A stretch of 64,000 nucleotides of DNA from a virus (IMGVR_UViG_3300047472_000449), one strand, 5' to 3'; positions 1,131 through 62,739 are shown, numbered from the stretch's first letter. Numbers and translations: made by a program. Notes: generated from the sequence alone by a model not told the origin.

Positions 1131-1170
1131 AGTATAGCGGCAGCACAGGCCATTGTCAATATCATTTACA
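1131..1170 (-). promoter_or_regulatory. sigma70 promoter with palindromic -35 operator
   Basis: TATACT/17 bp/TTGACA; plus strand TGTCAAT-ATC-ATTTACA. Confidence 0.75.
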
Positions 1171-1194
1171 TCTGCGACCGCTTCACTCAACAGA

Positions 1195-1590
1195 TCAACC
1201 GTGAGCGCGCCGGATGCCGACAATGGCCGGTAGAGGCTCTCCCCGTACCATCGCAATGGCTGTCCGGTGATAACCGTCCCACAGGGCTGAGCGGCCCTCG
1301 CAGCGCCCCACTATCACCGGGTCATTGAAGCCATCACGCAGCATGCCTTCATAATTTTCGGCTCGCCGATCACCATCGGCGCGAAACGAGGCAATTTCTT
1401 GCTGAAGCCAACCCCCAGCCTCTTCGACGCTGGAGAAAGTGCCCAGCGTGGTTGGGTTGAGTTCCTGGAAGTTCCAGTCTGCCTCGCGTGCATCGAAAAA
1501 GCAGTCTGAACCATCGTCATGATCATGACGGTACAGCGCCGCTTCTGCACGCAAGTAGCTGGAGGGCATGGATGACCAATCTATCGGCAT
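1195..1590 (-). CDS. ParB/Sulfiredoxin-like domain protein
   Basis: DPVIV...LWDGYHRTAIA...G..LPAIV matches the ParB/Srx DGxHR motif. Confidence 0.7.
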   Translation of the reverse strand: MPIDWSSMPSSYLRAEAALYRHDHDDGSDCFFDAREADWNFQELNPTTLGTFSSVEEAGGWLQQEIASFRADGDRRAENYEGMLRDGFNDPVIVGRCEGRSALWDGYHRTAIAMVRGEPLPAIVGIRRAHG

Positions 1591-1593
1591 GGC

Positions 1594-1857
1594 TTAGGCT
1601 TCTTCATCATCAATGAGGCCGTGGCGCACGAAGATTTCGCGAGCCTCGGGGATGTCGTGCAGGCAATTGCCCTGGGGGTCGCCGCGCTGGAAATACAGCT
1701 CGATCAACTCACAGAGGTGAAACGTGGCCTCTTTGGTGGTGGGCCGAGAGAGCATCTTGTCTGCGATGCTCTCCAGCATCTCACCCGAATCGTGGGGCTC
1801 ACCGACTGCCAAGGCGCGGAGCGCCCGGTAATCGGCCAGAGCCTGTGGATGATTCAT
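1594..1857 (-). CDS. hypothetical protein
   Basis: ATGA overlap with the stop of 1854..2573. Confidence 0.7.
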   Translation of the reverse strand: MNHPQALADYRALRALAVGEPHDSGEMLESIADKMLSRPTTKEATFHLCELIELYFQRGDPQGNCLHDIPEAREIFVRHGLIDDEEA

Positions 1858-2573
1858 TGCGTCGCCTGTGCGCGAGCCAGGGCATTGAGACAGTGAAGAC
1901 AAGTCACGTCCTTGGGGTTGATCGTGGTTTTGCGCATGAAGCCGCAGAGCGCTCCGCTTAGGCCGTCTTTGGCGTACGTGGCCTTTACGTGACCCGGCAT
2001 ATCTTTCTCGGTGCTGATCTCGAAAAGGTGAACCTTGGTTGCACGCTTGCGAGGCTTTTGGGCTTCAGGCTTTTTGACTTCTGGCTTTTTCGGCGGTGTG
2101 TAGATGAAATCGAAGCGGAAGATCTCGAAACCACTGGAGTGGTTGCAGCAATCGACGATCTTGACCAGCTCCAGATTTTCATCCCGGAAGTACGCTGCCA
2201 GAAACTTTTCGATCAGGTGCGGTCTGCCGTGACGCATGCCGCCCGATCCGATAGGCAGTTGCTCATTGAAGCAGGCGTCGAAGTGATCGCGATCCCAGCC
2301 GCCCATGCGATCTGAATAGGCTGTGTGGAATTGCTTGCCCTCCTCCAGCTTAATGGAGAATGGCTTGGTTTGGCCCCGGTACTTACCGTTGATCCAGCGC
2401 ACGTAGTCGCTGAAGCTGTAGGGGTAATCGCGCTTGGTGCGCTCAATCTTGTTGCCCTCAACATCGCGATGTTCAGAGCCAAACCGGCTGCTAAAACCAC
2501 CGTCATCACCGCCGAAGAAGATATCTCCGTCCACACCAATGTCATTGCCATAGTAAATTCGATGGTTGTTCAT
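1854..2573 (-). CDS. hypothetical phage/plasmid protein
   Basis: 239-aa ORF directly downstream of the promoter at 2606-2645. Confidence 0.8.
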   Translation of the reverse strand: MNNHRIYYGNDIGVDGDIFFGGDDGGFSSRFGSEHRDVEGNKIERTKRDYPYSFSDYVRWINGKYRGQTKPFSIKLEEGKQFHTAYSDRMGGWDRDHFDACFNEQLPIGSGGMRHGRPHLIEKFLAAYFRDENLELVKIVDCCNHSSGFEIFRFDFIYTPPKKPEVKKPEAQKPRKRATKVHLFEISTEKDMPGHVKATYAKDGLSGALCGFMRKTTINPKDVTCLHCLNALARAQATQ

Positions 2574-2605
2574 GCTTGGTGTCCGAACTTGAAGAATAGG
2601 ACTAA

Positions 2606-2645: not shown

Positions 2646-2677
2646 GCCTGTTTGTGCTGACTTTATTGTTTTTTACA

Positions 2678-2706
2678 TTGACATTTCTGTGATTCTTGGT
2701 TAAAAT
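2678..2706 (+). promoter_or_regulatory. sigma70 promoter (divergent partner)
   Basis: TTGACA-17-TAAAAT. Confidence 0.7.
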
Positions 2707-5374: not shown

Positions 5375-5974
5375 TTACTGCCCCATTTCCAGCGGGCGGG
5401 TCAGGTCTTCAACCATTATCTCCCTGTCTGCGTCATTGCTGATCAGTGTGTAACGAGGGTACTTATGATTGGTTCCGACCGCGATGGCATCATGCATTAG
5501 ATAGCCCAGGACAACGTTCATTTGGGCGGTATCGGTGGCATCAAAACCAGTTTCCTCAATCAATTTACCTACCGCTGGGTTAATCTTGTCGCCTACGATC
5601 TGGAAAATCGGGTAGTACTTTCGACCCTTGTAGGTATAAGCTAGGATCTTGCCAGCAGCCGCCTTCTTGCTCAACGCCTGCTTGGTGATGCCGAGCAGAT
5701 TGCAAACGGTTTTGGCATCAAAAACAGTGTAGTTATCCCTGATGCGACCGAACTGCTGCTCTCTGCTTTTGGCGAAAGCTATTGCATTGCGCTCTTGAAT
5801 ACTCGGCATTTTGACGGGATTGAATAGCGTGATCAGTTGAGCAAATTTTTGCGGCTCAAAATCTTCCATGGCCTTACGCACGACGGCAAGGGGCAGTGTT
5901 TCAAGCACCTCTTCCATGCGTGCGGCAAGCTGGGTAGCCACTTCTTTTTTTGGGTTGTTGAGGATTATTGTCAT
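5375..5974 (-). CDS. winged-HTH (excisionase/HTH_17-like) DNA-binding protein
   Basis: FDAKTVCNLLGITKQALSKKAAAGKILAY...KYYPIFQI; start refined to ATG 5974. Confidence 0.65.
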   Translation of the reverse strand: MTIILNNPKKEVATQLAARMEEVLETLPLAVVRKAMEDFEPQKFAQLITLFNPVKMPSIQERNAIAFAKSREQQFGRIRDNYTVFDAKTVCNLLGITKQALSKKAAAGKILAYTYKGRKYYPIFQIVGDKINPAVGKLIEETGFDATDTAQMNVVLGYLMHDAIAVGTNHKYPRYTLISNDADREIMVEDLTRPLEMGQ

Positions 5975-6034
5975 GGTGGCCACTCTGGCGGTGTTTTGTA
6001 GCAATGGATCAATAGTACTCTACCGCCGAGATCG

Positions 6035-6066
6035 TGTCAACCTGTCAACCTGTCAACTTGTCAACC
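6035..6066 (-). repeat. 4 x 8-bp direct repeat TGTCAAC(C/T) over the -35 of the HTH gene promoter
   Basis: TGTCAACC TGTCAACC TGTCAACT TGTCAACC read directly; -10 TACTAT at 6012-6017. Confidence 0.9.
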
Positions 6067-7178: not shown

Positions 7179-7221
7179 ATTATAGCCAGCACGCCCACCA
7201 CTGTCAATACAATTGACAGTG
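7179..7221 (-). promoter_or_regulatory. sigma70 promoter with perfect palindromic operator
   Basis: TATAAT/17/TTGACA; CACTGTCAAT-ACA-ATTGACAGTG (7199-7221). Confidence 0.9.
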
Positions 7222-7257
7222 GTGTAGGACGAAACGGCATCTCGACCTTCGGTTACT

Positions 7258-8741: not shown

Positions 8742-8781
8742 AGTATACCCATCAAGTCACCGACTGTCAATCACATTGTCA
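8742..8781 (-). promoter_or_regulatory. sigma70 promoter with palindromic -35 operator
   Basis: TATACT/17/TTGACA; TGTCAAT-CAC-ATTGTCA. Confidence 0.8.
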
Positions 8782-8784: not shown

Positions 8785-9960
8785 TCAGAGCGTGAATTGC
8801 GTCTCGCTGTCAGGCTGAAAAACCATGCACACCCGATTATTGGCATGAAGCGTGCGGAACTCTAGTGTGCTCCGTTGCTTACCCAATTCATTAATGATCT
8901 CGGTTGTCAGATTGTTCAGACTGTCCGACGCCATGGTGAAGATGACCTTGTGCCCACGGTGCGCCAGCACCATGGCGGCAGCAAGCGCGTTCCGATCATA
9001 GTTATCGCCGATGACGATTACTTGACCATACCCCAAGGCCGGGTCACCAATCTCTGGATCGGTCAGGTGCTCCAGTGTCTTCACCCAGGCATTGTCCGGG
9101 TAGGGTTTCGACACATGACCAACATGGGTCACCGTGATCAGGTCGGTTTTGTCGCGCTCAAACAGATCCTTGAGAATCAGGTTCATGATGTGCGTCTTGC
9201 CGCCCTGTGGCGGGCTGCTCAGCACGATCACGGCGCCAGCAGGATCATCGAGTTTCAACAGCCCACGGATGCGCTCCAAAAGCTCTGGGTGGCGTTTCTC
9301 AAGCAGTTTGAGGGCTGTGTCTTCGTTACTGTATGGAAAATCCAGCGCGGTCATGAGGTGGCCGCTGTCTGGCGCCGGTCGTTCTGGCTGGCCGTGGGCG
9401 TGGTAATTCACGTCATCTTCCGCCGCGATCAGCTCAAAGCCTTGCTCTTCGCTCAAGTAGATCCCGGCTTTCTCTGCCAGCGCCAGTAGCAGTCGCTCAG
9501 CACGCTCTTGCATGCGTTCCGCTTTGGCGGTGAGGGTGCCGGTGTCCGGCAGTTTCAGTCGCGAGCTGTTTTCCAAATGATTGACGCTCGCCATCCCCAG
9601 AATCGCCATCAGTCGAGTATCCAGATGATGTACCAACAAGCCAACATTGTCGCCTTCGCACTCAGTGAACTGGTGGGTGTCTTTTATTTGCCGAGCGATG
9701 CTGTGCGCCAATTTCACGGTGTAGCGGTGCCACTCATCTTCAGTGAGGAATACAAACCCAGGAATCGGTGTTTGCATCGGGCGCGAATCCAGATGTTCCG
9801 CCACCAGATCCTTGGCAAAAGCCCAGTAATTGGAGACTTCTTTGCCAGTGTCCAGCGTGATGATGCGAAAACGCTTGATGAACATTTCGGCAACTTGCGC
9901 ACCGTAGGTTTGCGGCAAGTCCTGCCACTCAGCATCGGTGAAAACTAGACCTTTGTGCAT
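8785..9960 (-). CDS. N-terminal unknown domain fused to degenerate PilT/GspE-like P-loop ATPase
   Basis: LSSPPQGGKTH Walker A; IVIGDNYDRNALAAAMVLAHRGHKVIFTMASDS resembles the PilT/GspE Walker B/His box. Confidence 0.6.
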   Translation of the reverse strand: MHKGLVFTDAEWQDLPQTYGAQVAEMFIKRFRIITLDTGKEVSNYWAFAKDLVAEHLDSRPMQTPIPGFVFLTEDEWHRYTVKLAHSIARQIKDTHQFTECEGDNVGLLVHHLDTRLMAILGMASVNHLENSSRLKLPDTGTLTAKAERMQERAERLLLALAEKAGIYLSEEQGFELIAAEDDVNYHAHGQPERPAPDSGHLMTALDFPYSNEDTALKLLEKRHPELLERIRGLLKLDDPAGAVIVLSSPPQGGKTHIMNLILKDLFERDKTDLITVTHVGHVSKPYPDNAWVKTLEHLTDPEIGDPALGYGQVIVIGDNYDRNALAAAMVLAHRGHKVIFTMASDSLNNLTTEIINELGKQRSTLEFRTLHANNRVCMVFQPDSETQFTL

Positions 9961-10063
9961 ATTCCATATCCCTATAGGTAAAGTGCCCGCATTCGCGAAG
10001 GGGCCAGCGGGTGTTTGGCTCTCAGGACGTTGAATGATCCACGAAAGCCGTTACAGTTGGTAG

Positions 10064-10486
10064 CTATTCAATCGGGTGCGGCTGGCCCGAGCTGTCACAC
10101 AAGAAATGCTTGCTAGCCGTCATAAAGAGGTCGGAAAGCCGTTTGCGCAGATCATGAACAACCTCGCCTTTCTGCTCGCCCGTATGCTCAATGAACTGAT
10201 ACACAGTGCTGAGTTCGTTGGCGATCAGGTTGGCAAGGCCTCGCACATGCATGTTCCATAGAAATTCGGAGATAAAGACGAACCCGGAAACAGGGGGTTG
10301 ACTCGGTTTCTTCATCAAATATTTTTCAACAAGATCACTGCCAAAGTCCCGGTAGTCTTCGACTTCAAGCCCTGTATCCACGACCAAGATGCGAAAATTG
10401 CGAAGAAAAGTTTCTCCAATGCAGCTGCCGAACGTTTGTGGCAACTCCAACCATTCGGCGTCTGTAAACACTGGCCCGTAATGCAT
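10064..10486 (-). CDS. stand-alone paralog of the N-terminal domain of 8785..9960
   Basis: MHYGPVFTDAEWLELPQTFG vs MHKGLVFTDAEWQDLPQTYG. Confidence 0.8.
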   Translation of the reverse strand: MHYGPVFTDAEWLELPQTFGSCIGETFLRNFRILVVDTGLEVEDYRDFGSDLVEKYLMKKPSQPPVSGFVFISEFLWNMHVRGLANLIANELSTVYQFIEHTGEQKGEVVHDLRKRLSDLFMTASKHFLCDSSGQPHPIE

Positions 10487-11049: not shown

Positions 11050-11793
11050 ATGAGCGCTATCGTCAATCTAGAGTTCGGAGCCAAATTCCCATTCGACGGT
11101 TCTGATGTTTTCTGGGATGGCCGCGCAGCAGCCTTGCCAGCTGTTGATTGGAAGCATGCCGTTGCCAGGGGCATTTTGGCGTCAGTCAGTACCCACCCTG
11201 GTATTAAACAGGCTTTGGTGCGTGATAAATGGCCTGAGGCTGAACGACTGGCACTGGTCGCCATACTTTCGATGGTCATCGATGCAAATTACGTAGGCAG
11301 TGAATCAGCAATGATGGCTGCCAGGGACATCGTGCGCCACCTGTGCTTGTTTGAAGCGATTGAGATGCAATTTTTCAGCATGGATCGGCAGCGCCTGGAG
11401 GCGATACATGGGGAAATTGCGCAAATTGTGCAGCAAGGCTTTGAGCGTTTCCAAGTCATTGTAGATGAGCCAGTGAGTGTGGATCGTTTCTACAGAAAAC
11501 CAGATATGGCGTCAGAAGGCGCGGCTCTGGCTGCCTCTAGCTTCATTTTGAAGGCAAGGGCCGCTGGTGCTTGCAGGCCTAACTTGACATTGAGTAACGG
11601 CAGCGCTGTTTCTGTTGTCTGGAGAAGTGGCAGCAACTCTCTTAGCGTCAATATCTCGGGTACTGAACAATTTTCTGCTGTCGGTATTGCAGACGGCGAA
11701 CACAAACTGGCGATAGAGGCGAGCGCCACAACGCTCCCTGAGGCGCTTGTGGAGTATTTGCTGAAGCATTTCGGCGAGCCCTCAAAACATTAA
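11050..11793 (+). CDS. hypothetical protein, paralog family A
   Basis: N-term FPFDGSD.FW...P..DW.H..ARGI.A shared with 11832 and 13226. Confidence 0.85.
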   Translation: MSAIVNLEFGAKFPFDGSDVFWDGRAAALPAVDWKHAVARGILASVSTHPGIKQALVRDKWPEAERLALVAILSMVIDANYVGSESAMMAARDIVRHLCLFEAIEMQFFSMDRQRLEAIHGEIAQIVQQGFERFQVIVDEPVSVDRFYRKPDMASEGAALAASSFILKARAAGACRPNLTLSNGSAVSVVWRSGSNSLSVNISGTEQFSAVGIADGEHKLAIEASATTLPEALVEYLLKHFGEPSKH

Positions 11794-11831
11794 TGATTTT
11801 AAATTAACCAATATTAATCAAGGGTATTTAG

Positions 11832-12626
11832 ATGAGCGCGATTGAACGAGGGGAATGTTTTCCCTTTGATGGTTCTGATGAGTTTTGGAATTCGGATATA
11901 AACGTTCCTCCCGCTCCAGCACGGGACTGGATTCATGTTGCGGCCCGAGGGATCATTGCAGATGTAACGGATCGTCGCGGCATCAAGCAAGCCTTTCAGG
12001 TTTGTGATTGGCTGGAAGCTGATCGGGTCAAACTGGTGAACGACCTGTGCGAGATCATCATGGTTCATATGGCTGATCCAGATGGTGTTACCAAAGACAT
12101 CATGCGTCGTCTGCGTGCCTGTGCTCGTGCCGAGAAGGAGTTTTCAGGCATTGATGATGATGTGATGGAATCAATCCATGGGGACTTCTATGGGATCATC
12201 ATGGAGGCATCAATAGACCCCAATACGAATAAGCTGGCGATTGAGATGACGCCTGAGCACCTCCAGGCAGCCTTTGCTCTAGTGGTGCTTGGGCATATCA
12301 ACGATACCCTGCCGAAGGAGGCTTGGGAGGGCTTCCGCTTCCATCAGTGCATGGTTAACGAACAAATGGTTCCTGGTGTAGAGGCTGATCCTGATTTGAC
12401 TCCGGAGCAATTGATTAAAACCTCATTCTGCTCAATGGGGAACATGGTGGATAGGATTATCCGAACGTACCAGAAAAAGAACGTCGAGGTCATTGGCGAA
12501 GTCGCCGGACAGCCGGTCTACTTCATTGCCCGCGCCGGTTACTACATGTGGGCGCCTCAGCCAGAAGGCGGAGAGATGTTTGACATCAATCTGTGCTTTC
12601 CTGGCTATCCGTCCGGCTGGAGGTAA
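11832..12626 (+). CDS. hypothetical protein, paralog family A
   Basis: same N-terminal domain, different C-terminus. Confidence 0.85.
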   Translation: MSAIERGECFPFDGSDEFWNSDINVPPAPARDWIHVAARGIIADVTDRRGIKQAFQVCDWLEADRVKLVNDLCEIIMVHMADPDGVTKDIMRRLRACARAEKEFSGIDDDVMESIHGDFYGIIMEASIDPNTNKLAIEMTPEHLQAAFALVVLGHINDTLPKEAWEGFRFHQCMVNEQMVPGVEADPDLTPEQLIKTSFCSMGNMVDRIIRTYQKKNVEVIGEVAGQPVYFIARAGYYMWAPQPEGGEMFDINLCFPGYPSGWR

Positions 12627-12631
12627 GCGCG

Positions 12632-12907
12632 ATGACTGACAAAATGACTGTACTCGCACTGGGTTTGCTCGCAGCCCTTGGCGCAGGGGCTGCAAGCGCT
12701 GAAGAGGTTGATCCAATGCAGCAGTTTCGCGAAGTCCCTGAGGGTTCAACTAACGGTATTCGCAAAGTTTGCGTTGACGATCAGTGGTATCTGGTCACCT
12801 ATCACTACAGTCTTCCCACAGGAATTACCCCAAAGCTCAAGGACGGTAAGCCAGAGCTGTGCGTAGAGTCTAAATCAACGCCAGCCACGCCAACATTGAA
12901 AAACTGA
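12632..12907 (+). CDS. putative exported protein
   Basis: signal-peptide-like LALGLLAALGAGAASA; GGAGG RBS. Confidence 0.7.
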   Translation: MTDKMTVLALGLLAALGAGAASAEEVDPMQQFREVPEGSTNGIRKVCVDDQWYLVTYHYSLPTGITPKLKDGKPELCVESKSTPATPTLKN

Positions 12908-12998
12908 CCGACTACACCCGCTGATGCATCGCGTCAGCGGGCGCCCGGCATTTTTAGTGCTAATAAATTTATACTTTAATCAGGCGTTTTGAATATAC

Positions 12999-13229
12999 AT
13001 GATGAGTGCAGAACAGTTTGTAAAAAACCGCTTTCCAGATGCCCATGTGACTTTGATCGCAGGCGGAAACTTCAGGCTTCAAGGCGTTCCTGGGCTTTTT
13101 GGTATTGCTGTTTCCGAAGCGCATGTTTGGCAAGGCGCAGCCCGTGAGTTGGGCGATCCTGTGCTTGAGGTGTACCGGGAAAGAGCCGCCGCGACAACGA
13201 ATTTGACTCACAGGGATAACGACGAATGA
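12999..13229 (+). CDS. hypothetical protein
   Basis: ATGA overlap with 13226. Confidence 0.65.
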   Translation: MMSAEQFVKNRFPDAHVTLIAGGNFRLQGVPGLFGIAVSEAHVWQGAARELGDPVLEVYRERAAATTNLTHRDNDE

Positions 13230-14590: not shown

Positions 14591-14630
14591 ATTATGACGA
14601 ACTTAAACACGAATGTCAATGCCATTTACT
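14591..14630 (-). promoter_or_regulatory. sigma70 promoter with palindromic -35 operator
   Basis: CATAAT/17/TTGACA; TGTCAAT-GCC-ATTTACT. Confidence 0.7.
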
Positions 14631-49416: not shown

Positions 49417-49446
49417 GCCGAATTACTCTGCCTGAATTGAGTGAAC

Positions 49447-49486
49447 AGTATACCGACCCTTTTCATAATTGTCAATTGTATTGACT
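49447..49486 (-). promoter_or_regulatory. sigma70 promoter with palindromic -35 operator
   Basis: TATACT/17/TTGACA; TGTCAAT-TGT-ATTGACT. Confidence 0.85.
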
Positions 49487-49499
49487 TTAAGGGTTGCGG

Positions 49500-50415: not shown

Positions 50416-50455
50416 ATTATAGGGCTTCTCGACACATTTGTCAATGCTGTTGTCA
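50416..50455 (-). promoter_or_regulatory. sigma70 promoter with palindromic -35 operator
   Basis: TATAAT/17/TTGACA; TGTCAAT-GCT-GTTGTCA. Confidence 0.75.
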
Positions 50456-51266: not shown

Positions 51267-51306
51267 ATTATACCCATTCCGCTTCTTAAAGTCAATGATG
51301 CTGACA
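51267..51306 (-). promoter_or_regulatory. sigma70 promoter with palindromic -35 operator
   Basis: TATAAT/17/TTGACT; AGTCAAT-GAT-GCTGACA. Confidence 0.75.
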
Positions 51307-51604: not shown

Positions 51605-51697
51605 ATTTTTACCTTATATTTTTGAGTAATTGTAGCGCCTTGAGCCAAGCTTTTCTTCTAAAACCAAGCTTTTGATTCTGTTGTATTGAATTACAGG

Positions 51698-51726
51698 TTG
51701 ACAAATTACCCTATATGGGTAATATA
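51698..51726 (+). promoter_or_regulatory. promoter with spacer palindrome (putative MqsA-type operator)
   Basis: TTGACA followed by ATTACCC-TATAT-GGGTAAT (51705-51723). Confidence 0.65.
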
Positions 51727-51751
51727 TAGTGACTCACTGAGGATACCTTGT

Positions 51752-51904
51752 ATGCCATTGCCGAAAGCGACACTTGATCTGGTACGCAACAGCAATGCTT
51801 TGCTGCTGGCCGGACGACAGGCTGTGAAGAAGCGATCTGCCGGGCTGTCCCAAGGCAAAATCGGTGAAATGCTGCAACAGGCATTCCTGCGACTTTCAAA
51901 ATAA
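51752..51904 (+). CDS. 50-aa ORF, possible truncated MqsR-like toxin remnant
   Basis: GAGG RBS; sits in the toxin position; weak likeness to the MqsR N-terminus (AG....RSA...G..EM...L.LS). Confidence 0.4.
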   Translation: MPLPKATLDLVRNSNALLLAGRQAVKKRSAGLSQGKIGEMLQQAFLRLSK

Positions 51905-51936
51905 GCCGATGCCTGCCGTCAATCAGTGAGGAATTT

Positions 51937-52341
51937 ATGAGTCAGCACCCTTGTGTATCCTGCGGCCACCCTGTCACAGAGCGATTTGCCAATCGAACCA
52001 TCAGTGTCAGCCATGCGCACGTCAGTCTTGCCGTCGATCATCTGGATGGCCTGGAATGCCCTGTGTGCAGCGAAATCCTTTTTGACCACGATAGCAGCCA
52101 CCTCTACAGCCATGCCTTGAACGCCGTTATTCGTCAGTTCCGTGGCGAGGAACTGCGTCGTATCCGCAAAAAATTGAAGCTGACCCAGCGTGAAGCGGTG
52201 CGTATCTTTACGGGTGGGGGTAATAATTCCATCTCGCGTTACGAACTCGGTCTCACGGCCATGCCGACCTCTTTGTGGGTGTTGATTCAACTGCTGGATC
52301 GTAGGCCAGAACTGTTGCATGACTTGCCGAAAGGGATCTGA
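51937..52341 (+). CDS. MqsA/HigA-type antitoxin (Zn ribbon + XRE HTH)
   Basis: CVSCG...LECPVCSEILFD + ELRRIRKKLKLTQREA..IF.GG.NSISRYELG. Confidence 0.85.
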   Translation: MSQHPCVSCGHPVTERFANRTISVSHAHVSLAVDHLDGLECPVCSEILFDHDSSHLYSHALNAVIRQFRGEELRRIRKKLKLTQREAVRIFTGGGNNSISRYELGLTAMPTSLWVLIQLLDRRPELLHDLPKGI

Positions 52342-52404: not shown

Positions 52405-52444
52405 CGACAATATCATTGACATTTTCTGATTGTGTCGGTATACT
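52405..52444 (+). promoter_or_regulatory. sigma70 promoter with palindromic -35 operator
   Basis: CGACAAT-ATC-ATTGACA-17-TATACT. Confidence 0.7.
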
Positions 52445-53695: not shown

Positions 53696-53735
53696 CGTCA
53701 ACTGTATTGACAATTCCCAATATTCTGGTTAAACT
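53696..53735 (+). promoter_or_regulatory. sigma70 promoter with palindromic -35 operator
   Basis: CGTCAAC-TGT-ATTGACA-17-TAAACT. Confidence 0.75.
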
Positions 53736-53770: not shown

Positions 53771-54199
53771 ATGACCATCGATTTTTTCCTTGTCCACGTC
53801 ACGCTGGCTGATGGTGGTGCGAAAAGCGTCGCGGGCTGCCTGGACTCTGCCACTCGTGTAATTACCTTCAGCCCGAAGGTTGAGGCTGACCCCGAGCTGG
53901 CCTCCTCTCTCCAGGGGGCCTGGGTGGATACCCGCGATGGCGTTGGTCTGCGCGTTCAGATTGCTGAGCGTGGCTTTGTGACTGAAAGCCAAGCTTTGTT
54001 TGATGCCAAACAATTGGTGCAAGACCATGGCTTTGAAGTCCTCTTTGATGAAGAGTCTGGTTATCACTTCTGGCGTGCGCGCAATTGGGTGGCAGATCCT
54101 GACGTGCCGGAAGAGTACTGGGGTTGCCTGAGCGCTGAAGAGGCGTACTTTGTTTGCGTCAAGCAAAATGAGCTGCGCAAAATCAGTGTGGCCGCGTAA
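53771..54199 (+). CDS. hypothetical protein, paralog of 53153..53551
   Basis: see 53153. Confidence 0.85.
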   Translation: MTIDFFLVHVTLADGGAKSVAGCLDSATRVITFSPKVEADPELASSLQGAWVDTRDGVGLRVQIAERGFVTESQALFDAKQLVQDHGFEVLFDEESGYHFWRARNWVADPDVPEEYWGCLSAEEAYFVCVKQNELRKISVAA

Positions 54200-54260
54200 T
54201 TCACATTGACAAATCAGCTGCATTCGGTATAATTGACCGATATTCCAAGGAGTTACCAGC

Positions 54261-54641: not shown

Positions 54642-54720
54642 GTGCCCGCCAGGGTCAGATTGGGCGACTGATCTGACCCGTCACCCCGGCGAATAAAGTG
54701 GCAAAATATCGAAAATTGTA

Positions 54721-54749
54721 TTGACATATACACCGATATTATGTAGAAT
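54721..54749 (+). promoter_or_regulatory. sigma70 promoter
   Basis: TTGACA-17-TAGAAT. Confidence 0.75.
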
Positions 54750-55365: not shown

Positions 55366-55465
55366 GACTACCTCAGTCGCCCACGTTTATGTAAAATGAC
55401 ATTGACAATCGTGTGCCCCATGGTTACACTGTCATCCTTCGCTACAGATAAAGAGATCGCCAATC

Positions 55466-56071
55466 ATGGCCAGCAAAACCAGAGAGCAGGAAGCCCAGGA
55501 TCGCCGTGATTACCTGGATAAGACCAATGCCCTGTCGGCAATCATCAAGCCACTGAACACCGCTGAGTATGAGGCTGATTTCTCGTTCAAAGACATCGCC
55601 ACATGGTTGGCAAAAATTGCTGGGGAATGGGGTGGGCTGAACCTGAACCCCGATTACCAGCGTGGCCATGTCTGGAATCCTGAGCAGCAACGCCGCTTTA
55701 TCGAGAGCGTTCTGCGCGGCACCGTCTCCAGCTCCGGTTTTGTCTTGCAGTTCAACTGCCCCAACTGGGAAAACGACGATTACGCGGGTGACATGCCTGC
55801 GGGCTTCGAGTGCATTGACGGCCTGCAACGCTATACCGCCGTGCAGGCGTTTGTTGCAGGTGATATCAAGCCCTTTGGCTTGAGCGTAGAAGAGCTGCAA
55901 GGCAGCACCTATGCGATCCACCGGTATTCGTTCAAGATCGCCGTGCATTGCTTCCAGAACCGCGTTGACCTGCTGAATCATTATCTCGCTCACAACGATG
56001 GCGGTACGCCGCACAGCCGCGAGGAATTGGATCGGGTGACCAAACTCCGGGATGATGCAATGGCGGCTTAG
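55466..56071 (+). CDS. DUF262 (GmrS/ParB-fold) domain protein, stand-alone
   Basis: LNPDYQRGHVW...QQRRFIESVLRG...CIDGLQRYTAV..F; promoter TTGACA-17-TACACT at 55402-55430. Confidence 0.85.
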   Translation: MASKTREQEAQDRRDYLDKTNALSAIIKPLNTAEYEADFSFKDIATWLAKIAGEWGGLNLNPDYQRGHVWNPEQQRRFIESVLRGTVSSSGFVLQFNCPNWENDDYAGDMPAGFECIDGLQRYTAVQAFVAGDIKPFGLSVEELQGSTYAIHRYSFKIAVHCFQNRVDLLNHYLAHNDGGTPHSREELDRVTKLRDDAMAA

Positions 56072-56149
56072 CCGTCAGCTACTTGGTCGCCCTGCCCTTT
56101 GGGTGTGGCGACCAGGATCGTCCAGGTAACCACTCATTGATAATTAATT

Positions 56150-56189
56150 TGTCAGTGGTATTGACATTCGCCTCGAATCTGGGTAGAAT
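56150..56189 (+). promoter_or_regulatory. sigma70 promoter with palindromic -35 operator
   Basis: TGTCAGT-GGT-ATTGACA-17-TAGAAT. Confidence 0.8.
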
Positions 56190-56274
56190 AACCCCATCGA
56201 AACAAGAAATGCCCTACCAACCAGGGCGGTACTTGAAGGCCACCACCGGCCACCATTTCAGCGGGGAATTCACC

Positions 56275-56643
56275 ATGTCGAACACCGAACTCAAAACCGT
56301 CAAAGTGGCTGAATTCCGCAACGCCTACGACAACCTGTACCGTCAATCCAACGTTCACTACCACTCCTGTGTTGGTGCCAACGAGGTGCGTAACTGGAAG
56401 GTCGTCGCCGAACGCGTCCTGGCACAGACCAAATTGCTCCAGTGCAGCCGTGCCAATGAGTACGACAAGGAGCAGATGGCCAATGCGATCCGTTCCGTGA
56501 CTGAACGTCTGGCGGCTGCTGATGCGCGCATTGAGGAGCTGGATGAGCGCACTCGCCAGCTGCGTGAGAAGGCGCAGCGGGCCGAGCAGGCGCCTCAGGC
56601 CAAGCCTCAGCTGCAACTGATCCAGGGTGGCCGTTTGCACTAA
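56275..56643 (+). CDS. coiled-coil hypothetical protein
   Basis: GGGGAA RBS; biased codon usage. Confidence 0.8.
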   Translation: MSNTELKTVKVAEFRNAYDNLYRQSNVHYHSCVGANEVRNWKVVAERVLAQTKLLQCSRANEYDKEQMANAIRSVTERLAAADARIEELDERTRQLREKAQRAEQAPQAKPQLQLIQGGRLH

Positions 56644-56817
56644 GGCCCCACAAGCCAAGCTTTTGCCCTGTTGCGAGACTCGCAATGGGGCATTGCTGCA
56701 TTTAGAGTGGGGTATTCTGTCGATATAACAACAATATACCGTGACAAAATACGAAAATAACATTGACTTTTCCGTGAGGTTTAGCTATAATTAAGTCACA
56801 AGTCAGGGAGATCCGAT

Positions 56818-57069
56818 GTGAGCAACAACCCATTGGGCCTGCCAACACTGTACGCCCGATACGAGCCAACCAGTGATCGGATGGCTCTGGCATACGCCAG
56901 GGGCGGTAAGCCCAAACGCGACGTGTGTCTCTATGCAGACGACGCCGCCGCAGATTATCGAGGGCGATTCACATGGAGCAACAGGCGTAAGCCAAACAAG
57001 GCCAGTCGAACCTGCCTGCATGGCAACCTTCAGTGGCAACTGGTCTGGCTTGAAGATCTCGCGCAGTAG
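56818..57069 (+). CDS. hypothetical protein, paralog of 52473..52718
   Basis: see 52473; promoter TTGACT-17-TATAAT at 56763-56791. Confidence 0.85.
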   Translation: MSNNPLGLPTLYARYEPTSDRMALAYARGGKPKRDVCLYADDAAADYRGRFTWSNRRKPNKASRTCLHGNLQWQLVWLEDLAQ

Positions 57070-57192
57070 TGCAGTCGATCACCAGGGCCGCTCCGCCAGC
57101 GCAGCCCGAAGCAAGGCAATCTAAGCGTTAATAGATAGCCCCCACCCGCACAGCGCCAACAGGGATGCTGTCGTCTTTACCCTGGCAATCCT

Positions 57193-57231
57193 TGTGGAGG
57201 TACGTCTTGCGTATCCTCCCGCGTCCCGTGC
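57193..57231. repeat. 39-bp intergenic hairpin repeat, copy 2
   Basis: 37/39 identical to 55327-55365. Confidence 0.85.
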
Positions 57232-57341
57232 TCCCGAAAAGCCTTTGATCTTAAAATGGCCATACAGCCCGCACAGGGCTTTTTGTCGTCCTATAGATTA
57301 ATGCGTTACAATCACACTTAAATTAATAAGGATAATGACCA

Positions 57342-57698
57342 ATGATCGATTATGAGCCCGGTATCTCTTTTGAGGACTGGTTTAAGCTGGCGTTTAAAGG
57401 CCTTCCCGTGCCAAGCGAGTTCCTGGAATACCTGAAGGAGCATCCCGAAGGGCTCTCGGGTGAGCTGGGATCAGTGTGGGAGGCTCAGGAGATAATCGGA
57501 TGGACAGAAGAGCGTGATCTGCACGAACGAGGTGTCTGCTTAATTGGATGGGGCGCTGGCGCTATGACCCACTTTCTACTGGGAGCGAAGAACGGAAAGA
57601 TCTACATCGTGGATAAACATGACACCTCAATCGTGGATGCCACATTCTCCGGGATGCAGACCTTCATTAACCTAATGCAGTTTAATCTGCCTGATTAA
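57342..57698 (+). CDS. SMI1/KNR4 (SUKH)-like protein
   Basis: LP.PSEFLEYL...IG...G...L...NGKIY..D....V...FS....FI. Confidence 0.55.
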   Translation: MIDYEPGISFEDWFKLAFKGLPVPSEFLEYLKEHPEGLSGELGSVWEAQEIIGWTEERDLHERGVCLIGWGAGAMTHFLLGAKNGKIYIVDKHDTSIVDATFSGMQTFINLMQFNLPD

Positions 57699-58182
57699 TC
57701 GTGATGGGGTGCTCTGCACCCATAGAGAGGCGCACGTCGAGCGATTGGCAGTACTGTGCGTAATCCTCGGCAGCCTTCTTCCGGCCATCATTCCATCCGT
57801 CTGCCAATGCTGCATTACCGACCAGCATGAATGGAGTGCCTTCGACATTAAGACCGAATCCAATCCGCCCACATTCAAAGCTTGCCGTATAGGCAGTCTC
57901 CAGCAGCGCTGGATCGGCATTAGGCATCATGCTGCTCTCAAAGATTGATCGTGCTTCCCACAGGCGAGAATCAAGCCAGCCTTCCCTCCAGTTTTTGGCA
58001 AGCACCTCATGACGCGCCAGCAGCACCGGAACCTCATTGATGCCCAGGACACTGGAGCTGTGCATTCCACACATGCGAGCGTCAAATTTTGCGCTCTGCA
58101 CACGCTCTTGCTCAGGGATCAGCAAAAAGATCTCGTAATCGGCCCGAGCATTAATCGCGTAATAAAAATAGTCTTGATCCAT
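57682..58182 (-). CDS. hypothetical protein, family G (two modules)
   Basis: ARA.YEI...R...A..DA...G..S....GI..VP.LLA....LAK.W..GW..SR. Confidence 0.85.
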   Translation of the reverse strand: MDQDYFYYAINARADYEIFLLIPEQERVQSAKFDARMCGMHSSSVLGINEVPVLLARHEVLAKNWREGWLDSRLWEARSIFESSMMPNADPALLETAYTASFECGRIGFGLNVEGTPFMLVGNAALADGWNDGRKKAAEDYAQYCQSLDVRLSMGAEHPITINQAD

Positions 58183-58234
58183 TGTCTATCTCTGTAGGGC
58201 AGCAAGTCCCTTAATTTGACGGTTGTTGGTGGGC

Positions 58235-58528
58235 TCAATCGCTTGACATGAAGTCATGATCTTCATCTGACATGTTTTTATTCATCTCATCGATCCCCTC
58301 ATCATGGGATCGGGATTCCATCCAGCCTTGTTTCCAGACTTTAGCCAGAGGTTCGCGGGCAGCCAGCAGCTCTGGAACCTGATCAATCCCCATCAGACCA
58401 TAGCTCAGCTGTCCTGAGATGTGTGCATCCCAATATGCGTCCTCAAGACGATCAGCATCAGGAAGGATCTGGCAGATCTCGTAATTGGCCCGAGCATCCA
58501 GTGCGTGCGTGAAGAAATCGATGTGCAT
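58235..58528 (-). CDS. hypothetical protein, family G (one module)
   Basis: see 57682. Confidence 0.85.
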   Translation of the reverse strand: MHIDFFTHALDARANYEICQILPDADRLEDAYWDAHISGQLSYGLMGIDQVPELLAAREPLAKVWKQGWMESRSHDEGIDEMNKNMSDEDHDFMSSD

Positions 58529-58585
58529 TTGCAGTCTCCAGATGCCAGTGAGTCCCTTAATTGGACGGTATTGAGTAGCCTTTGA

Positions 58586-58780
58586 TCAGATCAGATTGCC
58601 ATCTTCATCAATACCGAGGTGCCCACGGGTAATCCAGCCCCGATTAAATGCCTCGACAATGTACTCTGCCAGCTCCTGAGGGCTGTGATACAGCGCCAGC
58701 TTGGCCACTGCCTGCTCGCCATCCTGGTGACCACGATAAATCGCAGCCATTTCCTGTGCCACGCTTCGATTAATTTCCAC
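58586..58780 (-). CDS. small hypothetical protein
   Basis: GTG start, GGAG RBS. Confidence 0.65.
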   Translation of the reverse strand: MEINRSVAQEMAAIYRGHQDGEQAVAKLALYHSPQELAEYIVEAFNRGWITRGHLGIDEDGNLI

Positions 58781-58841
58781 TGGAATCTCCGATAGGGAAG
58801 CAAGTCCCTTATTTAATGAGTTAAGACGTTTTTGTTAGCAA

Positions 58842-58997
58842 TCAATTGTCGTCATCGTCGCCATTATCAATGACCTGATAATCGTACGGGGAGATTGCCG
58901 TGCCGCAACAGCTACAGCAATCAGATGAAGCGCTGTAGTCATACTGCGACCAGTTGTAATTGCACGGAGAGCAGTAGTAATAATTGAGGTAATTCAT
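58842..58997 (-). CDS. 51-aa Cys/Tyr-rich zinc-ribbon peptide
   Basis: YYYCSPC.Y.W......DCCSCCG. Confidence 0.6.
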   Translation of the reverse strand: MNYLNYYYCSPCNYNWSQYDYSASSDCCSCCGTAISPYDYQVIDNGDDDDN

Positions 58998-59028
58998 GCC
59001 GATCACCCTGTGCGTTGAGAGTGAGGTA

Positions 59029-59068
59029 AGTATACCCGTACCCCATGATATTGTCAATGTTATTGACG
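59029..59068 (-). promoter_or_regulatory. sigma70 promoter with palindromic -35 operator
   Basis: TATACT/17/TTGACA; TGTCAAT-GTT-ATTGACG. Confidence 0.85.
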
Positions 59069-59210
59069 ATATATGCCATGATCGAAATCCGAACGACTCA
59101 CCCTTGTAGCATTCAGAAACTGAGTTTCTATGCAAAGGCATCTGGCATGCAAAAATAAACTGTTCTTCCGCATACTTATAGCGTTATTATATTGAAAAAC
59201 AGGAGGCGAC

Positions 59211-59447
59211 ATGGCTAACGTATATCTGAAATCAAAGAAACAAAAAGACAATGGCAGCGTGGATAAAACGTTCGCAGTCGATTGGGTGGATTTAGAAGCC
59301 GAATTTGTCGTCAACGAAACAGGTGACGGCTGGGAGATCGATTACATTCATGTGATCAAGGGTGACAAAGATGAAGTAGAAGAGATCGTAGATCATTACA
59401 TGATGAATGAATACGAATTCGACGAAACTGAATACGCAGCAAACTGA
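59211..59447 (+). CDS. small acidic protein
   Basis: AGGAGG RBS. Confidence 0.8.
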   Translation: MANVYLKSKKQKDNGSVDKTFAVDWVDLEAEFVVNETGDGWEIDYIHVIKGDKDEVEEIVDHYMMNEYEFDETEYAAN

Positions 59448-59476
59448 TTCTTACACAGCAGCTAAGTCAACACGCT

Positions 59477-60511
59477 TTTGCTCACAAAAAAACCAAGCTC
59501 TCGGTTAAACCCAAGCTTGGTTTTTTATTAACTGTTCCGTGTTCGGTTTTTTGTGAACAAAGCTTTTCAATGAGGATGACAGGATGGACGATAAGGCAAA
59601 AACAGATCTGCATGAATGGCTTGGCGAAAAAGGCTTTAGCGGCTCATTTGAAGGCCTAGAGACAAAGCTTCATGGCCTTGAAAGGGAAAGCCGAGACCGA
59701 ATTTGTTGGATGCTTTGGGAAGGGCAATTTCACTCAAACAAACGCATCATCGAATATCTCAAGAGAATCTATGCGCTTGGGAACAAGCATTTCAAGCATC
59801 ATTCCATGACTGGTGATTATCTTATTCTCGGTTCAATGGAGTTCTCAACGCCTAGAGCTGAATACGTTCACCGAGATATCAAGGCAATCACTGTCAGGCT
59901 AGACTGGACAGGCCAGCAATATCATAAGGAACTCGAAGTACGCATAATTTTCAAGTATGGCAACGATGATGGCATCAGAAATCGTTACGCTATATTCAAG
60001 CTGTAAGGGGCAGCTCCGGCAGCACGACCCGAATCCTCGCCAACACCGTATTCCACCCAGGCATCGGTACTGAGGATTCGGAAGGGCTTTTTTGTGAACA
60101 AAAACACTACGTGAGTCATAACGTAGTTTTTTGTGGACAAACAAAAGCCAGAACCGGCATCCATCAAATCATCCAGCAAGACTAAAATTGCGCTCTTGTT
60201 TGTGAGCAAAAAAAGAAGCTCTTCACCTTCAAATTAAGGGACTCGCTGGCCATGGGTCGGACGAGATCGCCTCCTGTCCACTCCCTCGCTTTTGATGGCC
60301 TCTGCCCTCCTCCTGATATCCGTCATTCATTAAATCGCTCTACCGCTATGCTGGTGGCCTGTCTGGTGCTGCGCGCCCACTTTGGCAGGTGCTGATTTGA
60401 GGACAAAAAACCCGACAGACCAAAGCCTGACGGGTTCTATTTGAATCGAGGGATCTGTTTGAGGACAAAGAACTACGTTATGGATAAGGGACTGCTTTGT
60501 TTGTTCACAAA
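59477..60511. repeat. eight copies of 12-bp TTTG(T/A)G(A/G)(A/G)CAAA box
   Basis: 59477(rc), 59550, 60091, 60130, 60199, 60396, 60458, 60500(rc). Confidence 0.85.
59584..60006 (+). CDS. hypothetical protein
   Basis: GAGGA RBS, 140 aa. Confidence 0.7.
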   Translation: MDDKAKTDLHEWLGEKGFSGSFEGLETKLHGLERESRDRICWMLWEGQFHSNKRIIEYLKRIYALGNKHFKHHSMTGDYLILGSMEFSTPRAEYVHRDIKAITVRLDWTGQQYHKELEVRIIFKYGNDDGIRNRYAIFKL

Positions 60512-60528
60512 AAAGCGCTTCTAACCCT

Positions 60529-61332
60529 CTAGATAAGGGACTCGCTGGCCGAGACGGGTCTTGGGGGGAGCTGTTCATCCAGCAATTGTCTTAGCCCTAT
60601 TGATGCTGTCTGTTCAATGTTGATGACATCATAAATCGAGCGAATGTAATACTGCTGGTCAAGTTCCTTTATATGATCGAAGGAAACAGGGTTGATAAAT
60701 ATGATCAGGGCGTTGTTTCTTCGCGCTGCCATTAGAAAATCAATAAGATAGCTAAAGTGTAGCTCTGTTCCTATCACAAGAAGAACATCTGCCTTTGATG
60801 ATGCTGAAATCGCCGATTTGTAATTCTTCGATTTAATGCTCTCGCCAAACATTACAATTCTCGGCCTTAAGATCGACTTTGGCGTATCAATGCATGTTGA
60901 GCATTTTGGAACGCCTGACTGCTCATTATTAAGCTGGCAGAGCTGGCCGCACCTGATGCATGAATAAGTGTTTGCAGTGCCGTGTAGCTCGATTACATGT
61001 TTCTCATCGATACCAGCCAATACCGAATATCCATCAATGTTTTGAGTTATTTCAACAAATGACTTGGATTGGTTACTAATCTTTTTGAGAAGTCGATGAG
61101 CTTCGTTTGGCTCGCAACTTTTGATTTTTGAGTAAATACTCCACCAATATCGCCAAAATAGTTCTGGCCGGTGTTTTGCTGTATGAGCACTGATTATTTT
61201 TTCAATAGGTTCGCCAAGTTCTTTCTCTATCGTTGTATAAATGCCATTGGCACCACGATATGTTGGTATTCCACTTTCTTCACTCAGGCCTGCTCCAGTG
61301 ATGGCAACTACATTGTATCGAGAGAAATTCAT
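60529..61332 (-). CDS. Sir2/CobB-like NAD+-dependent deacylase (sirtuin)
   Basis: ITGAGLSEESGIPTYRG; ITQNIDG; ELHG; CIRC..CSTC; RPRIVMFGE; VIGT; start refined to ATG 61332. Confidence 0.92.
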   Translation of the reverse strand: MNFSRYNVVAITGAGLSEESGIPTYRGANGIYTTIEKELGEPIEKIISAHTAKHRPELFWRYWWSIYSKIKSCEPNEAHRLLKKISNQSKSFVEITQNIDGYSVLAGIDEKHVIELHGTANTYSCIRCGQLCQLNNEQSGVPKCSTCIDTPKSILRPRIVMFGESIKSKNYKSAISASSKADVLLVIGTELHFSYLIDFLMAARRNNALIIFINPVSFDHIKELDQQYYIRSIYDVINIEQTASIGLRQLLDEQLPPRPVSASESLI

Positions 61333-61426
61333 GATATGGCTCAATAGAAATAAGAAACATGGTGGAGTATAGTACCTAATATTAGATTTTTCATAGCGCG
61401 CTATGCGCGAAGGTTCCCAGGTTGTT

Positions 61427-62083
61427 ATGTCGAGTCCTTTTATTGCTTCACCTCTAGACTTCAAATCACTTAGGTCTAATGGATATATCTGCACAAGCGT
61501 TACGAGTCATATGGCAAACTTGTTGCTAAAATGTGTTAAGTCAGAGCGTTTTGTCGATGATTTCGAATCAAAGACAGGGGATGGCTACACCCAATCCGAA
61601 ACTGAATACTCAAACATGTATGTGGCCAAAGATCGTATGGGTGAACGCCCAGGCGGATTCTATGAAGTTTGGTTAAGTAACCTCATGGCGTGGGCTAAGC
61701 CTTATGTCGGCATGTACATGAATGCTCCGACCGGCCTTGATGCGCATCTGGCAATTACGGAATGCCGCAACGGTTATCACATGGATTGGCATCATGATGT
61801 CGGTGAGCGCGGTGTGGCGCTGGCCTTGCTCTATCTGAGTGAGCATGACATTGAGAAGCGCCACGGTGGTGAGCTTCTGGTTTCAAAAGTGCATCGAGAC
61901 GCACGTGGCAATTCAGATAGCAGAGAGGTTACCGGAGTATTCACTCCGTCACATGGCAGGCTTGTGTTGCTTGATGCCTCTTCTACACGATTCGAGCACA
62001 AGGTTGAGGAATATAAAAACAATGAATTTAACAGGTACTGCTTAGCTGCGGTTCTTGGAATGCCGAGGTCTGATAATGTTTAA
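61427..62083 (+). CDS. 2OG-Fe(II) oxygenase (prolyl-4-hydroxylase-like)
   Basis: WHHD (HxD), LLYLS, GGEL, P.HGRLVL, FEHKV, R. Confidence 0.85.
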   Translation: MSSPFIASPLDFKSLRSNGYICTSVTSHMANLLLKCVKSERFVDDFESKTGDGYTQSETEYSNMYVAKDRMGERPGGFYEVWLSNLMAWAKPYVGMYMNAPTGLDAHLAITECRNGYHMDWHHDVGERGVALALLYLSEHDIEKRHGGELLVSKVHRDARGNSDSREVTGVFTPSHGRLVLLDASSTRFEHKVEEYKNNEFNRYCLAAVLGMPRSDNV

Positions 62084-62714
62084 TCATCCATTTGATGTAA
62101 ATAAATTGAGTGAACATGGATTCTATAAATCCTCCATCAATAGACCTTTTGCAGACATGCTGCTCATGGAAATCAAAAGAGAACAATTTCAGGAGGATGT
62201 CCCTGATGAGCCAGACTATGTTGGTTATGAGGAGAAATATTACAGGGATCGATACATCTCAGCTGTTGATAGAATTGATCAAAAAAAACGGAGCCCTCTC
62301 AAAGCTGTTATTGCAAATGCAGTCATTGAGTACCAAAAGGCGTTGATTCGATATTATACGGGTAGTGAGGATATCAGAGCGTCAAACGTGACATCCTATG
62401 AGGGTAGAAAAGGCTACATGATGGGGTGGCACCAGGACATCGGTGATCGATCCATTTCTGAAACAATAATTTATCTGAATGATTGCGAGTGGATGCCTGA
62501 ACATGGTGGTGAAATCGAGGTGTCTGAAGTTGAGCGAGACTGCAATGGCAAGGTCGTTGCGAGAAAGACGCTTGAGATCATCCCGCCCAGGCATGGTGAC
62601 GTAGTTATCCTTGAGAATCTGTCACCGCATTTTGAGCACCGCGTCCTTCCTTGGAATGCTGAGCACTCAAGGTTTTCCGTCATAGTGATTGCCGGGATGC
62701 TACATTCATATTGA
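62076..62714 (+). CDS. 2OG-Fe(II) oxygenase (prolyl-4-hydroxylase-like)
   Basis: WHQD, IIYLN, W...GGEI, P.HGDVVI, FEHRV, RFS. Confidence 0.88.
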   Translation: MFNHPFDVNKLSEHGFYKSSINRPFADMLLMEIKREQFQEDVPDEPDYVGYEEKYYRDRYISAVDRIDQKKRSPLKAVIANAVIEYQKALIRYYTGSEDIRASNVTSYEGRKGYMMGWHQDIGDRSISETIIYLNDCEWMPEHGGEIEVSEVERDCNGKVVARKTLEIIPPRHGDVVILENLSPHFEHRVLPWNAEHSRFSVIVIAGMLHSY

Positions 62715-62739
62715 CATTTTTACATATTATGTGTAGAAT
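62711..62739 (+). promoter_or_regulatory. sigma70 promoter
   Basis: TTGACA-17-TAGAAT. Confidence 0.7.

Follow-up and report, generated by a model that had tools for sequence, protein, structure and literature searches.

What would place the same palindrome over the -35 box of one strong promoter after another in a giant mobile element? The question is raised by a 64-kb stretch (hereafter the window) of the virus-classified, uncultured replicon IMGVR_UViG_3300047472_000449, the one window that was read out of a contig of 1,136,521 bp (1.14 Mb). The window has ~53% G+C and is densely filled with ~130 small genes. An earlier note on this DNA had proposed that one dimeric repressor acts on dozens of its -35 boxes. 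A single factor fits all the sequence tests described below; repression is suggested by geometry, and no binder was found in the window. We consider it probable that the palindrome is the operator of one dimeric repressor that works in the manner of ArdK, but on inverted repeats and at the scale of a regulon.

With up to two mismatches, the pattern TGTCAWT-N3-ATTGACA (TGTCAWTNNNATTGACA) has 58 strand matches at 31 distinct sites in the window, where dinucleotide shuffles average 1.08 and never exceed 4. Tightening the limit to one mismatch leaves 37 strand matches (578 per Mb), and the reversed-pattern control has none; the density of sites is ~5 per 10 kb. The palindrome is coupled exclusively to promoters. 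Exact TTGACA hexamers number 62, and 41 have a -10 box 16-18 bp downstream; all 41 are intergenic, the earlier note having listed near-perfect promoters in ~40 intergenic gaps. The left arm of the palindrome (at most two mismatches) is present at 31 of these 41, with a chance P of 0.019 per site. Among the 21 hexamers without a -10 box it is found twice, both times at a hexamer that is itself the mirror arm of a perfect palindrome.

The register is equally strict. The promoter pattern TTGAC[AT]-16..18-TAnnnT has 47 sites, 44 of them intergenic units with a gene 20-90 nt downstream. A left arm with at most one mismatch accompanies 22 of the 47, only at a spacer of 3 (chance P = 0.002 per site) and at none of the spacers 0-2 or 4-8. 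Over the 47 promoters the logo of the left arm, outward from the -35 box, is T26 G42 T32 C28 A37 W T36, with G at -45 in 42/47 and A at -36 in 38/47. The left-arm bases and the A at -36 are not requirements of sigma70. Further upstream and within the promoter spacer the information is ~0 bits, so the promoters are not recent copies or duplicates of one another, and the site is kept at paralogous genes whose proteins are only 25-45% identical. Position 6 of the arm is T in half of the sites, which produces a T-T mismatch, and the arms deviate independently, changes in the left arm never being compensated; both features fit recognition by a protein rather than base pairing. The 3-bp operator spacer had been described as constant in length and varying in sequence. 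It does vary, but not at random: 20/34 spacers are purine-pyrimidine-purine or the converse (RYR or YRY; 25% expected), with GTG occurring six times and TGT five times, perhaps a sign that the centre of the site has to be deformable.

The promoters are near-consensus in both boxes, at 17-bp spacing (TTGACA-17-TATAMT). Other positions are also common to the class (for example at 43433-43480): T at -16 and G at -14 are found in 34/44 promoters each, TATACT is favoured as the -10 box, and a C-A-T motif at the predicted start, ~7 nt past the -10 box, is followed by an A-rich leader. With the 17-bp spacer, the palindrome spans ~-46 to -30 and is centred at -38. In the mechanism that we propose, a dimeric and probably helix-turn-helix (HTH) protein encoded by the element would use the sigma70 -35 hexamer itself as a half-site. 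Given the position of the site, the dimer and sigma70 region 4 could not occupy a promoter together, and binding of one would exclude the other; the proximal site for the C-terminal domain of the RNA polymerase alpha subunit (alpha-CTD) would probably be blocked too. Steric repression is the natural reading of this geometry, because the promoters are close enough to consensus to need no activator and the right arm is the -35 hexamer. The default without the protein would thus be strong transcription, and its presence would mean silence. In the window about 30 such promoters head short operons, which together hold as many as two thirds or so of the ~130 predicted genes; their release would come on entry into a naive cell.

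The parallel with ArdK and the CUP-controlled genes drawn by the earlier note is apt. ArdK of the IncW plasmid R388 represses five promoters through TTGACA repeats in which one arm is the -35 box, Pssb reading GTATTGACACCTATTGACA; the ArdK recognition helix matches that of sigma70 region 4, and synthetic operators with TTGACA repeats inverted and 3-4 bp apart are repressed by the protein as well (PMC9723621). In the R388 sequence, three promoters have RTTGACA-NCT-ATTGACA upstream of a -10 box, with 17 bp between the two. As in the ArdK/CUP systems of R388 and the IncN plasmid pKM101 (PMC9723621; PMC3937220), the window has TTGACA arms of which the promoter-proximal one is the -35 box, and its 7-3-7 register is that of R388. 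As in the ArdK regulon, which consists of small establishment genes, ssb among them, behind strong promoters, a single factor would act on many dispersed promoters. The upstream arm, however, is direct in R388 and inverted here: TTGACA-N4-TTGACA does not occur in the window, and no direct-repeat arm is found at the N3 register of the promoters. ArdK has five targets per R388 plasmid, a conjugative plasmid of 34 kb, whereas there are about 30 per 64 kb here, on a 1.14-Mb uncultured replicon with no KorA/ArdK homologue detectable in the window. Compared with a plasmid leading region, the window has ssb with a degenerate site, and its genes are of mixed orientation.

If the proposal holds, the ArdK principle (a mimic of sigma region 4 that takes the -35 box as half-site) would extend from five promoters on a 34-kb plasmid to the scale of a regulon, and to an inverted-repeat topology so far shown only with synthetic operators. 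Were one factor to control promoters at this density (about 30 in 64 kb), one experiment might suffice to activate a very large block of uncharacterised genes of a giant rhizosphere mobile element. The operator is also useful as a marker by which co-regulated genes of this lineage can be mapped. More tentatively, and with less than even confidence, we suggest that a dimeric reader of the -35 box, unrelated to ArdK/KorA or only remotely so, may read it as sigma70 region 4 does and silence well over 100 consensus promoters across ~150 kb of the 1.14-Mb Pseudomonas-associated element, all of them fired together on entry into a new cell. On that scale it would surpass every single-operator regulon known from mobile elements, and a very large number of unknown small genes, together with paralogue families and orphan antitoxin-like genes, would be under its control.

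Several observations weigh against repression by one ArdK-like, element-encoded dimer. About 10-15 equally strong promoters have no left arm; neither is the site needed for promoter activity, nor would repression be universal. The TGxCA cores are 12 bp apart here and 10 bp apart in ArdK sites. Contigs from RNA libraries span parts of the region, although such contigs cannot show transcription starts or levels. The search for the binder among the 128 window proteins yielded no Pfam match (E <= 0.01) to the KorA/TrfB, sigma region 4 or GerE families, and when R388 ArdK and KorA served as phmmer queries on the six-frame translation of the window the best E was 0.41. Only three HTH proteins are present in the window, each with a different operator of its own.

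Two of the three are clear HTH proteins by Pfam. A 60-amino-acid XRE protein (28000-28182) lies in a plus-strand operon (27694-28182) whose promoter carries its own palindrome, ATACGCGCA-T-TGCGCGTAT, and was rejected as the binder on that ground; so was an MqsA-like antitoxin (51937-52341), whose plus-strand operon (51687-52341) has a promoter with the palindrome ATTACCC-N5-GGGTAAT. In both operons the palindrome is perfect and lies between the -35 and -10 boxes (27694-27712 and 51706-51724). The first, ATACGCGCA-T-TGCGCGTAT, precedes the genes of an XRE pair of 83 and 60 amino acids, and the second, ATTACCC-TATAT-GGGTAAT, precedes a 50-amino-acid open reading frame and the MqsA-like antitoxin. 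These operons look like autoregulated modules of the toxin-antitoxin type. The protein whose gene follows the perfect palindrome at 7202 was also considered as a candidate binder and yielded no lead.

The third protein, P0005 (199 amino acids, 5375-5974), resembles winged HTH proteins of the HTH_17/Rv2175c type. Its minus-strand unit (5375-6066) has four tandem GTTGACAR repeats in the promoter (6035-6066); the block consists of four 8-bp repeats, GTTGACGA GTGGACAG GTTGACAG GTTGACA, of which the last is the -35 box. The same 35-bp repeat block is nearly invariant upstream of ~40% identical P0005 homologues in three viral contigs (L223:9700-10438, L224:347-1083 and L225:6888-7624). None of these three records, one of them a complete 34-kb virus, contains the palindrome. 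P0005 and its direct repeats are thus a self-contained module, and the protein was rejected as the binder, the repeat block travelling with the gene in viruses that lack the palindrome. The protein and its repeats have the look of an autoregulated module, not described before, in which direct repeats of the TTGACA type are read. That P0005 evidently reads a TTGACA-containing repeat is what keeps it a weak candidate for the palindrome, and an improbable one. An AlphaFold2 model of P0005 had a pLDDT of 50, too poor for use.

The 29 palindromes listed in the earlier note are all present with a left arm of at least 5/7, and further sites were found at 232 and 54195. On the minus strand, the operator-promoters begin with 232-248 (GGTCAAT-ACC-ATTGACA, -10 box TAAACT), 1154-1170 (TGTAAAT-GAT-ATTGACA, -10 box TATACT) and 2629-2645 (TGTCATT-ATG-GTTGACA, -10 box TATAAT), the last heading a three-gene operon. 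The site at 7202-7218 is a perfect palindrome (TGTCAAT-TGT-ATTGACA, -10 box TATAAT) set in a 29-nt perfect hairpin (7196-7224). It is followed by 8765-8781 (TGACAAT-GTG-ATTGACA), which heads a five-gene operon, 14614-14630 (AGTAAAT-GGC-ATTGACA, -10 box CATAAT), 15727-15743 (TGTCAGT-GTG-ATTGACA), 16828-16844 (AGTCAAT-GGC-ATTGACA) and the promoter of ssb at 18732-18748. The last of these qualifies the earlier inclusion of ssb in the regulon: its promoter does have the site, but as a degenerate copy (TGAAAAT-GAT-GTTGACA, left arm 5/7). Plus-strand sites follow at 21566-21582 (TGTCATC-TGT-ATTGACA) and 22011-22027 (GGTCAAC-CGA-GTTGACA). At 24397-24413 a minus-strand site (TGTCATT-TGT-ATTGACT) is the divergent partner of a plus-strand site at 24429-24445 (TGTCATT-GTG-ATTGACA), their centres 32 bp apart, and the latter heads a six-gene operon. 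One more plus-strand site lies at 26744-26760 (GGTCATT-GTT-ATTGACA), and two on the minus strand at 30374-30390 (AGTAAAT-GTG-ATTGACA) and 30777-30793 (TGACAAT-GTG-TTTGACA).

A long minus-strand series opens at 42096-42112 (TGTCATT-CAT-ATTGACA, -10 box TATAAT), the head of another six-gene operon, and continues with 42719-42735 (TGTCATT-GGT-ATTGACA), 43463-43479 (TGTCATT-GTG-ATTGACA), 44583-44599 (TGTCAAC-CGT-ATTGACA, at a member of a paralogue family), 45746-45762 (TGTCATT-TGC-ATTGACA, within a long hairpin, 45736-45772), 46539-46555 (TGTCATA-TGT-ATTGACA), 48871-48887 (TGTCATT-CAC-ATTGACA, within a long hairpin, 48865-48893), 49470-49486 (AGTCAAT-ACA-ATTGACA), 50439-50455 (TGACAAC-AGC-ATTGACA) and 51290-51306 (TGTCAGC-ATC-ATTGACT). 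Beyond it the plus strand has 52405-52421 (CGACAAT-ATC-ATTGACA), 53696-53712 (CGTCAAC-TGT-ATTGACA), 54195-54211 (CGTAATT-CAC-ATTGACA) and 56150-56166 (TGTCAGT-GGT-ATTGACA). The minus-strand site at 59052-59068 (CGTCAAT-AAC-ATTGACA) is the final good one ahead of a drop in G+C. The sites end at ~59.6 kb, where G+C is down to 46-50%, and the ~64 kb read of the 1.14-Mb contig do not bear out the replicon-wide extent that had been claimed.

Two variant classes were also seen. TGTTTTT-N3-ATTGACW, with the same 7-mer in the place of the left arm, occurs at 2667-2683 (+), 34201-34217 (-), 40045-40061 (-) and 46567-46583 (+). These four promoters are strong; the genes behind two of them (39615-39992 and 46642-46944) are paralogues. 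They may form a second discrete class, with an UP-like element or the site of another factor. The other variant, nGAAAAT-N3-ATTGACW, is found at 18039-18055 (-), 54710-54726 (+), 55391-55407 (+) and 56752-56768 (+).

The transcription units differ from those first envisaged. Promoter-gene-terminator cassettes of single genes had been proposed; the promoters instead head short operons of 1-8 genes, and the 34 with a left arm (at most two mismatches) head up to 89 of the 131 predicted genes. Intrinsic terminators are not enriched at 41-60 kb (20 found, 20.1 expected), and terminator-like hairpins follow only 17/131 genes, against a control rate of 7.8%. About 30 of the promoters are on the minus strand and 14 on the plus strand.

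A first alternative keeps the protein and changes its origin. A host Pseudomonas transcription factor might bind the site, and some 30 or more promoters of the element would then answer to a signal of the host. The failure to find an element-encoded binder in the window is in keeping with this, as is the fact that Pseudomonadales genomes have slightly more matches to the pattern than to its reversed control. Across 151 such genomes, however, there are only 0-23 palindrome matches each at one mismatch or fewer; host-order genomes have at most ~5 sites per Mb, compared with 578 per Mb in the window. By the test set in the earlier note, a left half-site no commoner here than at host TTGACA promoters would have counted against the finding; it was instead more than 100-fold rarer in the Pseudomonadales genomes. 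Of the twelve sites read in the two genomes with the highest counts (G016 and G004), none has a correctly spaced -10 box; they appear to be intragenic, and neither genome has a homologue of a 299-amino-acid window protein. The palindrome is likewise absent, beyond chance, from related large plasmids. pMPPla107 and pBASL58, described Pseudomonas megaplasmids of ~1 Mb (PMC6482414), have 16 and 15 strand matches (at most two mismatches) in 0.97 and 0.90 Mb, which is the chance level, and the P. savastanoi plasmid that encodes the closest single-stranded DNA-binding protein (SSB) has no site. We regard a host factor as unlikely.

Scans of viral, genome and metagenome collections for the combined promoter and operator pattern returned scattered sites only, at most three per locus. 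They are mostly from Clostridia and in unrelated contexts, and none approaches the ~5 per 10 kb of the window. Three loci (L006, L010 and L123) have the same palindrome in triplicate between divergent XRE genes, beside an ImmA protease, the classic arrangement of a temperate-phage switch. At L010:9928-10027 and L006:1710-1809 this immunity switch has three operators of the TGTCAAT-N3-ATTGACA type ~41 bp apart, placed between a gene for a 66-amino-acid Cro-like protein and that of a 122-amino-acid XRE repressor, with an ImmA-like HEXXH protease after the latter. The identical palindrome in these XRE switches, where it overlaps TTGACA promoters, shows that some HTH dimers do use precisely this site. 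The CI/Cro switches cluster three operators, whereas those of the window are single and spread over ~59 kb. A CI/Cro immunity switch was rejected for the window itself, where the operators are single and dispersed and the two XRE-type proteins have other palindromes.

A second alternative keeps a binder and changes its effect: instead of repressing, the protein would activate the promoters or take the place of sigma region 4 (sigma appropriation). Class II activators also sit at dyads near -40, and giant phages do re-programme the host RNA polymerase. Near-consensus boxes at 17-bp spacing, however, need no activator, and the right arm is the -35 hexamer and not a site adjacent to it, so that the binder would compete with sigma for the same bases. 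The same layout represses in ArdK (PMC9723621). An activating role is quite unlikely, and the geometry would favour repression over another effect.

Other systems in which one repressor silences many operons resemble the proposed one in logic and differ in their operators. Phage P1 C1 acts on an asymmetric 17-mer, with about 17-20 sites, and no operator of this type is present in the window. Among the IncP-1 repressors, KorA acts at the -10 box and KorB often at a distance, through the operators OA (GTTTAGCTAAAC) and OB (TTTAGCSGCTAAA). In the window, the OA and OB palindromes have only 2-mismatch matches at chance level, none of them at promoters of the class. P1 C1 is a likeness in that one repressor keeps many scattered operons of a large plasmid-like element silent (for context, see PMC8546580). 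KorA, KorB, KorC and TrbA of IncP-1 (RK2) are plasmid-encoded repressors at multiple dispersed palindromic operators on strong promoters (PMC4889941; PMC11790492), and IncP-1 repression is released after transfer in the zygotic induction of RP4 (PMC7314908). The IncP-1 operator sequences differ from the palindrome, and there are 3-12 operators per plasmid.

Might the left arm instead belong to the promoter, with no dedicated regulator? It could be an intrinsic element, contacted by RNA polymerase or alpha-CTD or serving as a decoy inverted -35, or else a by-product of palindrome-templated mutation. The class does share the other non-canonical positions noted above (T-16 and G-14 in 34/44 each, C-A-T at +1), and the arm-less promoters carry A- or T-tracts at the same place, in the manner of UP elements. 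The arm, however, is not an A/T tract and mirrors the -35 box exactly, including the G at -45 in 42/47. The mirrored hexamer has no -10 box, and positions -30 to -12 are not conserved. The arm is missing from other promoters of equal strength and from promoter-like sites of host-order genomes. We judge this explanation very unlikely.

The longer stems reported at 7199-7221, 45736-45772 and 48865-48893 are real. Three operators lie in long perfect hairpins (7196-7224, 45736-45772 and 48865-48893) with folding energies of -13 to -15 kcal/mol and z of -6.5 to -8. Each begins 11-37 nt past the stop codon of the upstream co-directional gene, their outer stems differ in sequence and yet stay paired, and no T-run follows the stem. 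These three may have an added role in the formation of RNA 3' ends or in higher-affinity binding. Typical sites fold with only -2.4 to -3.8 kcal/mol (z of -1 to -2.2), one of them out of register, and the stem extension is absent at 18/27 good sites; a hairpin role for the class as a whole is unlikely. That the palindrome acts as a hairpin or cruciform (as a single-strand promoter on DNA that enters the cell, as an insulator, or in terminating or stabilising the transcript of the upstream gene) has in its favour these three sites just after stop codons, with pairing retained through varying extensions, and is nevertheless the least credible of the explanations, given the weak typical folds, the missing extensions and T-runs, the T-T mismatch at position 6 in half of the sites and the uncompensated changes in the left arm. 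Use of a single transferred strand is ruled out because the promoters are on both strands. Single-strand promoters of the Frpo/ssi type, known from leading regions, were rejected for the same reason, and since the hairpin would cover the -35 box only.

A Pseudomonas host is suggested by the sequence of one gene. The ssb gene (18147-18653, minus strand) encodes an SSB of 168 amino acids whose closest relatives, at 87% identity, are the SSBs of P. savastanoi and P. syringae plasmids; this similarity points to Pseudomonas as host of the element. Public runs that contain the stretch are chiefly rhizosphere and soil metagenomes, with 95-99% identical relatives across several studies. Relatives at 44-82% identity are on the contigs that encode the proteins P0002-P0004 and P0006-P0009, those at 65-82% being on contigs of 34-38 kb. 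No nucleotide match to pieces of the window was obtained by megablast or blastn in plasmid and phage collections. A tblastn search with a protein of a paralogue family returned nothing in phages and a single weak Halomonas match in plasmids, and searches for related loci with the 299-amino-acid protein or its alignment returned nothing in viral or metagenome contigs.

Gene content gives few indications of function. Only 18 Pfam families are matched among the 128 proteins, and PHROG matches are to a handful of families of unknown function. The anti-defence and host-takeover programme put forward in the earlier note has almost no annotation behind it. ArdA/ArdC, relaxase and type IV secretion system families were not found among the window proteins, and no oriT was seen in the window. 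The proteins encoded downstream of ssb, also considered and rejected as candidate binders, have weak zinc-ribbon hints only. Tandem paralogue families are present at 43863-50066 (six members), 32389-35615 (four), 8785-10486 (two) and 11050-13630 (three); the members are 25-50% identical, and most copies have their own operator-promoter. G+C falls from ~53% to 46-50% within 56000-64000, and the regulon ends there. Beyond its end lie genes for a Sir2 protein (60529-61494, minus strand), a 2OG-Fe(II) oxygenase (62076-62714), an SLT (lytic) transglycosylase (62864-63490) and a 2Fe-2S ferredoxin (63487-63711).

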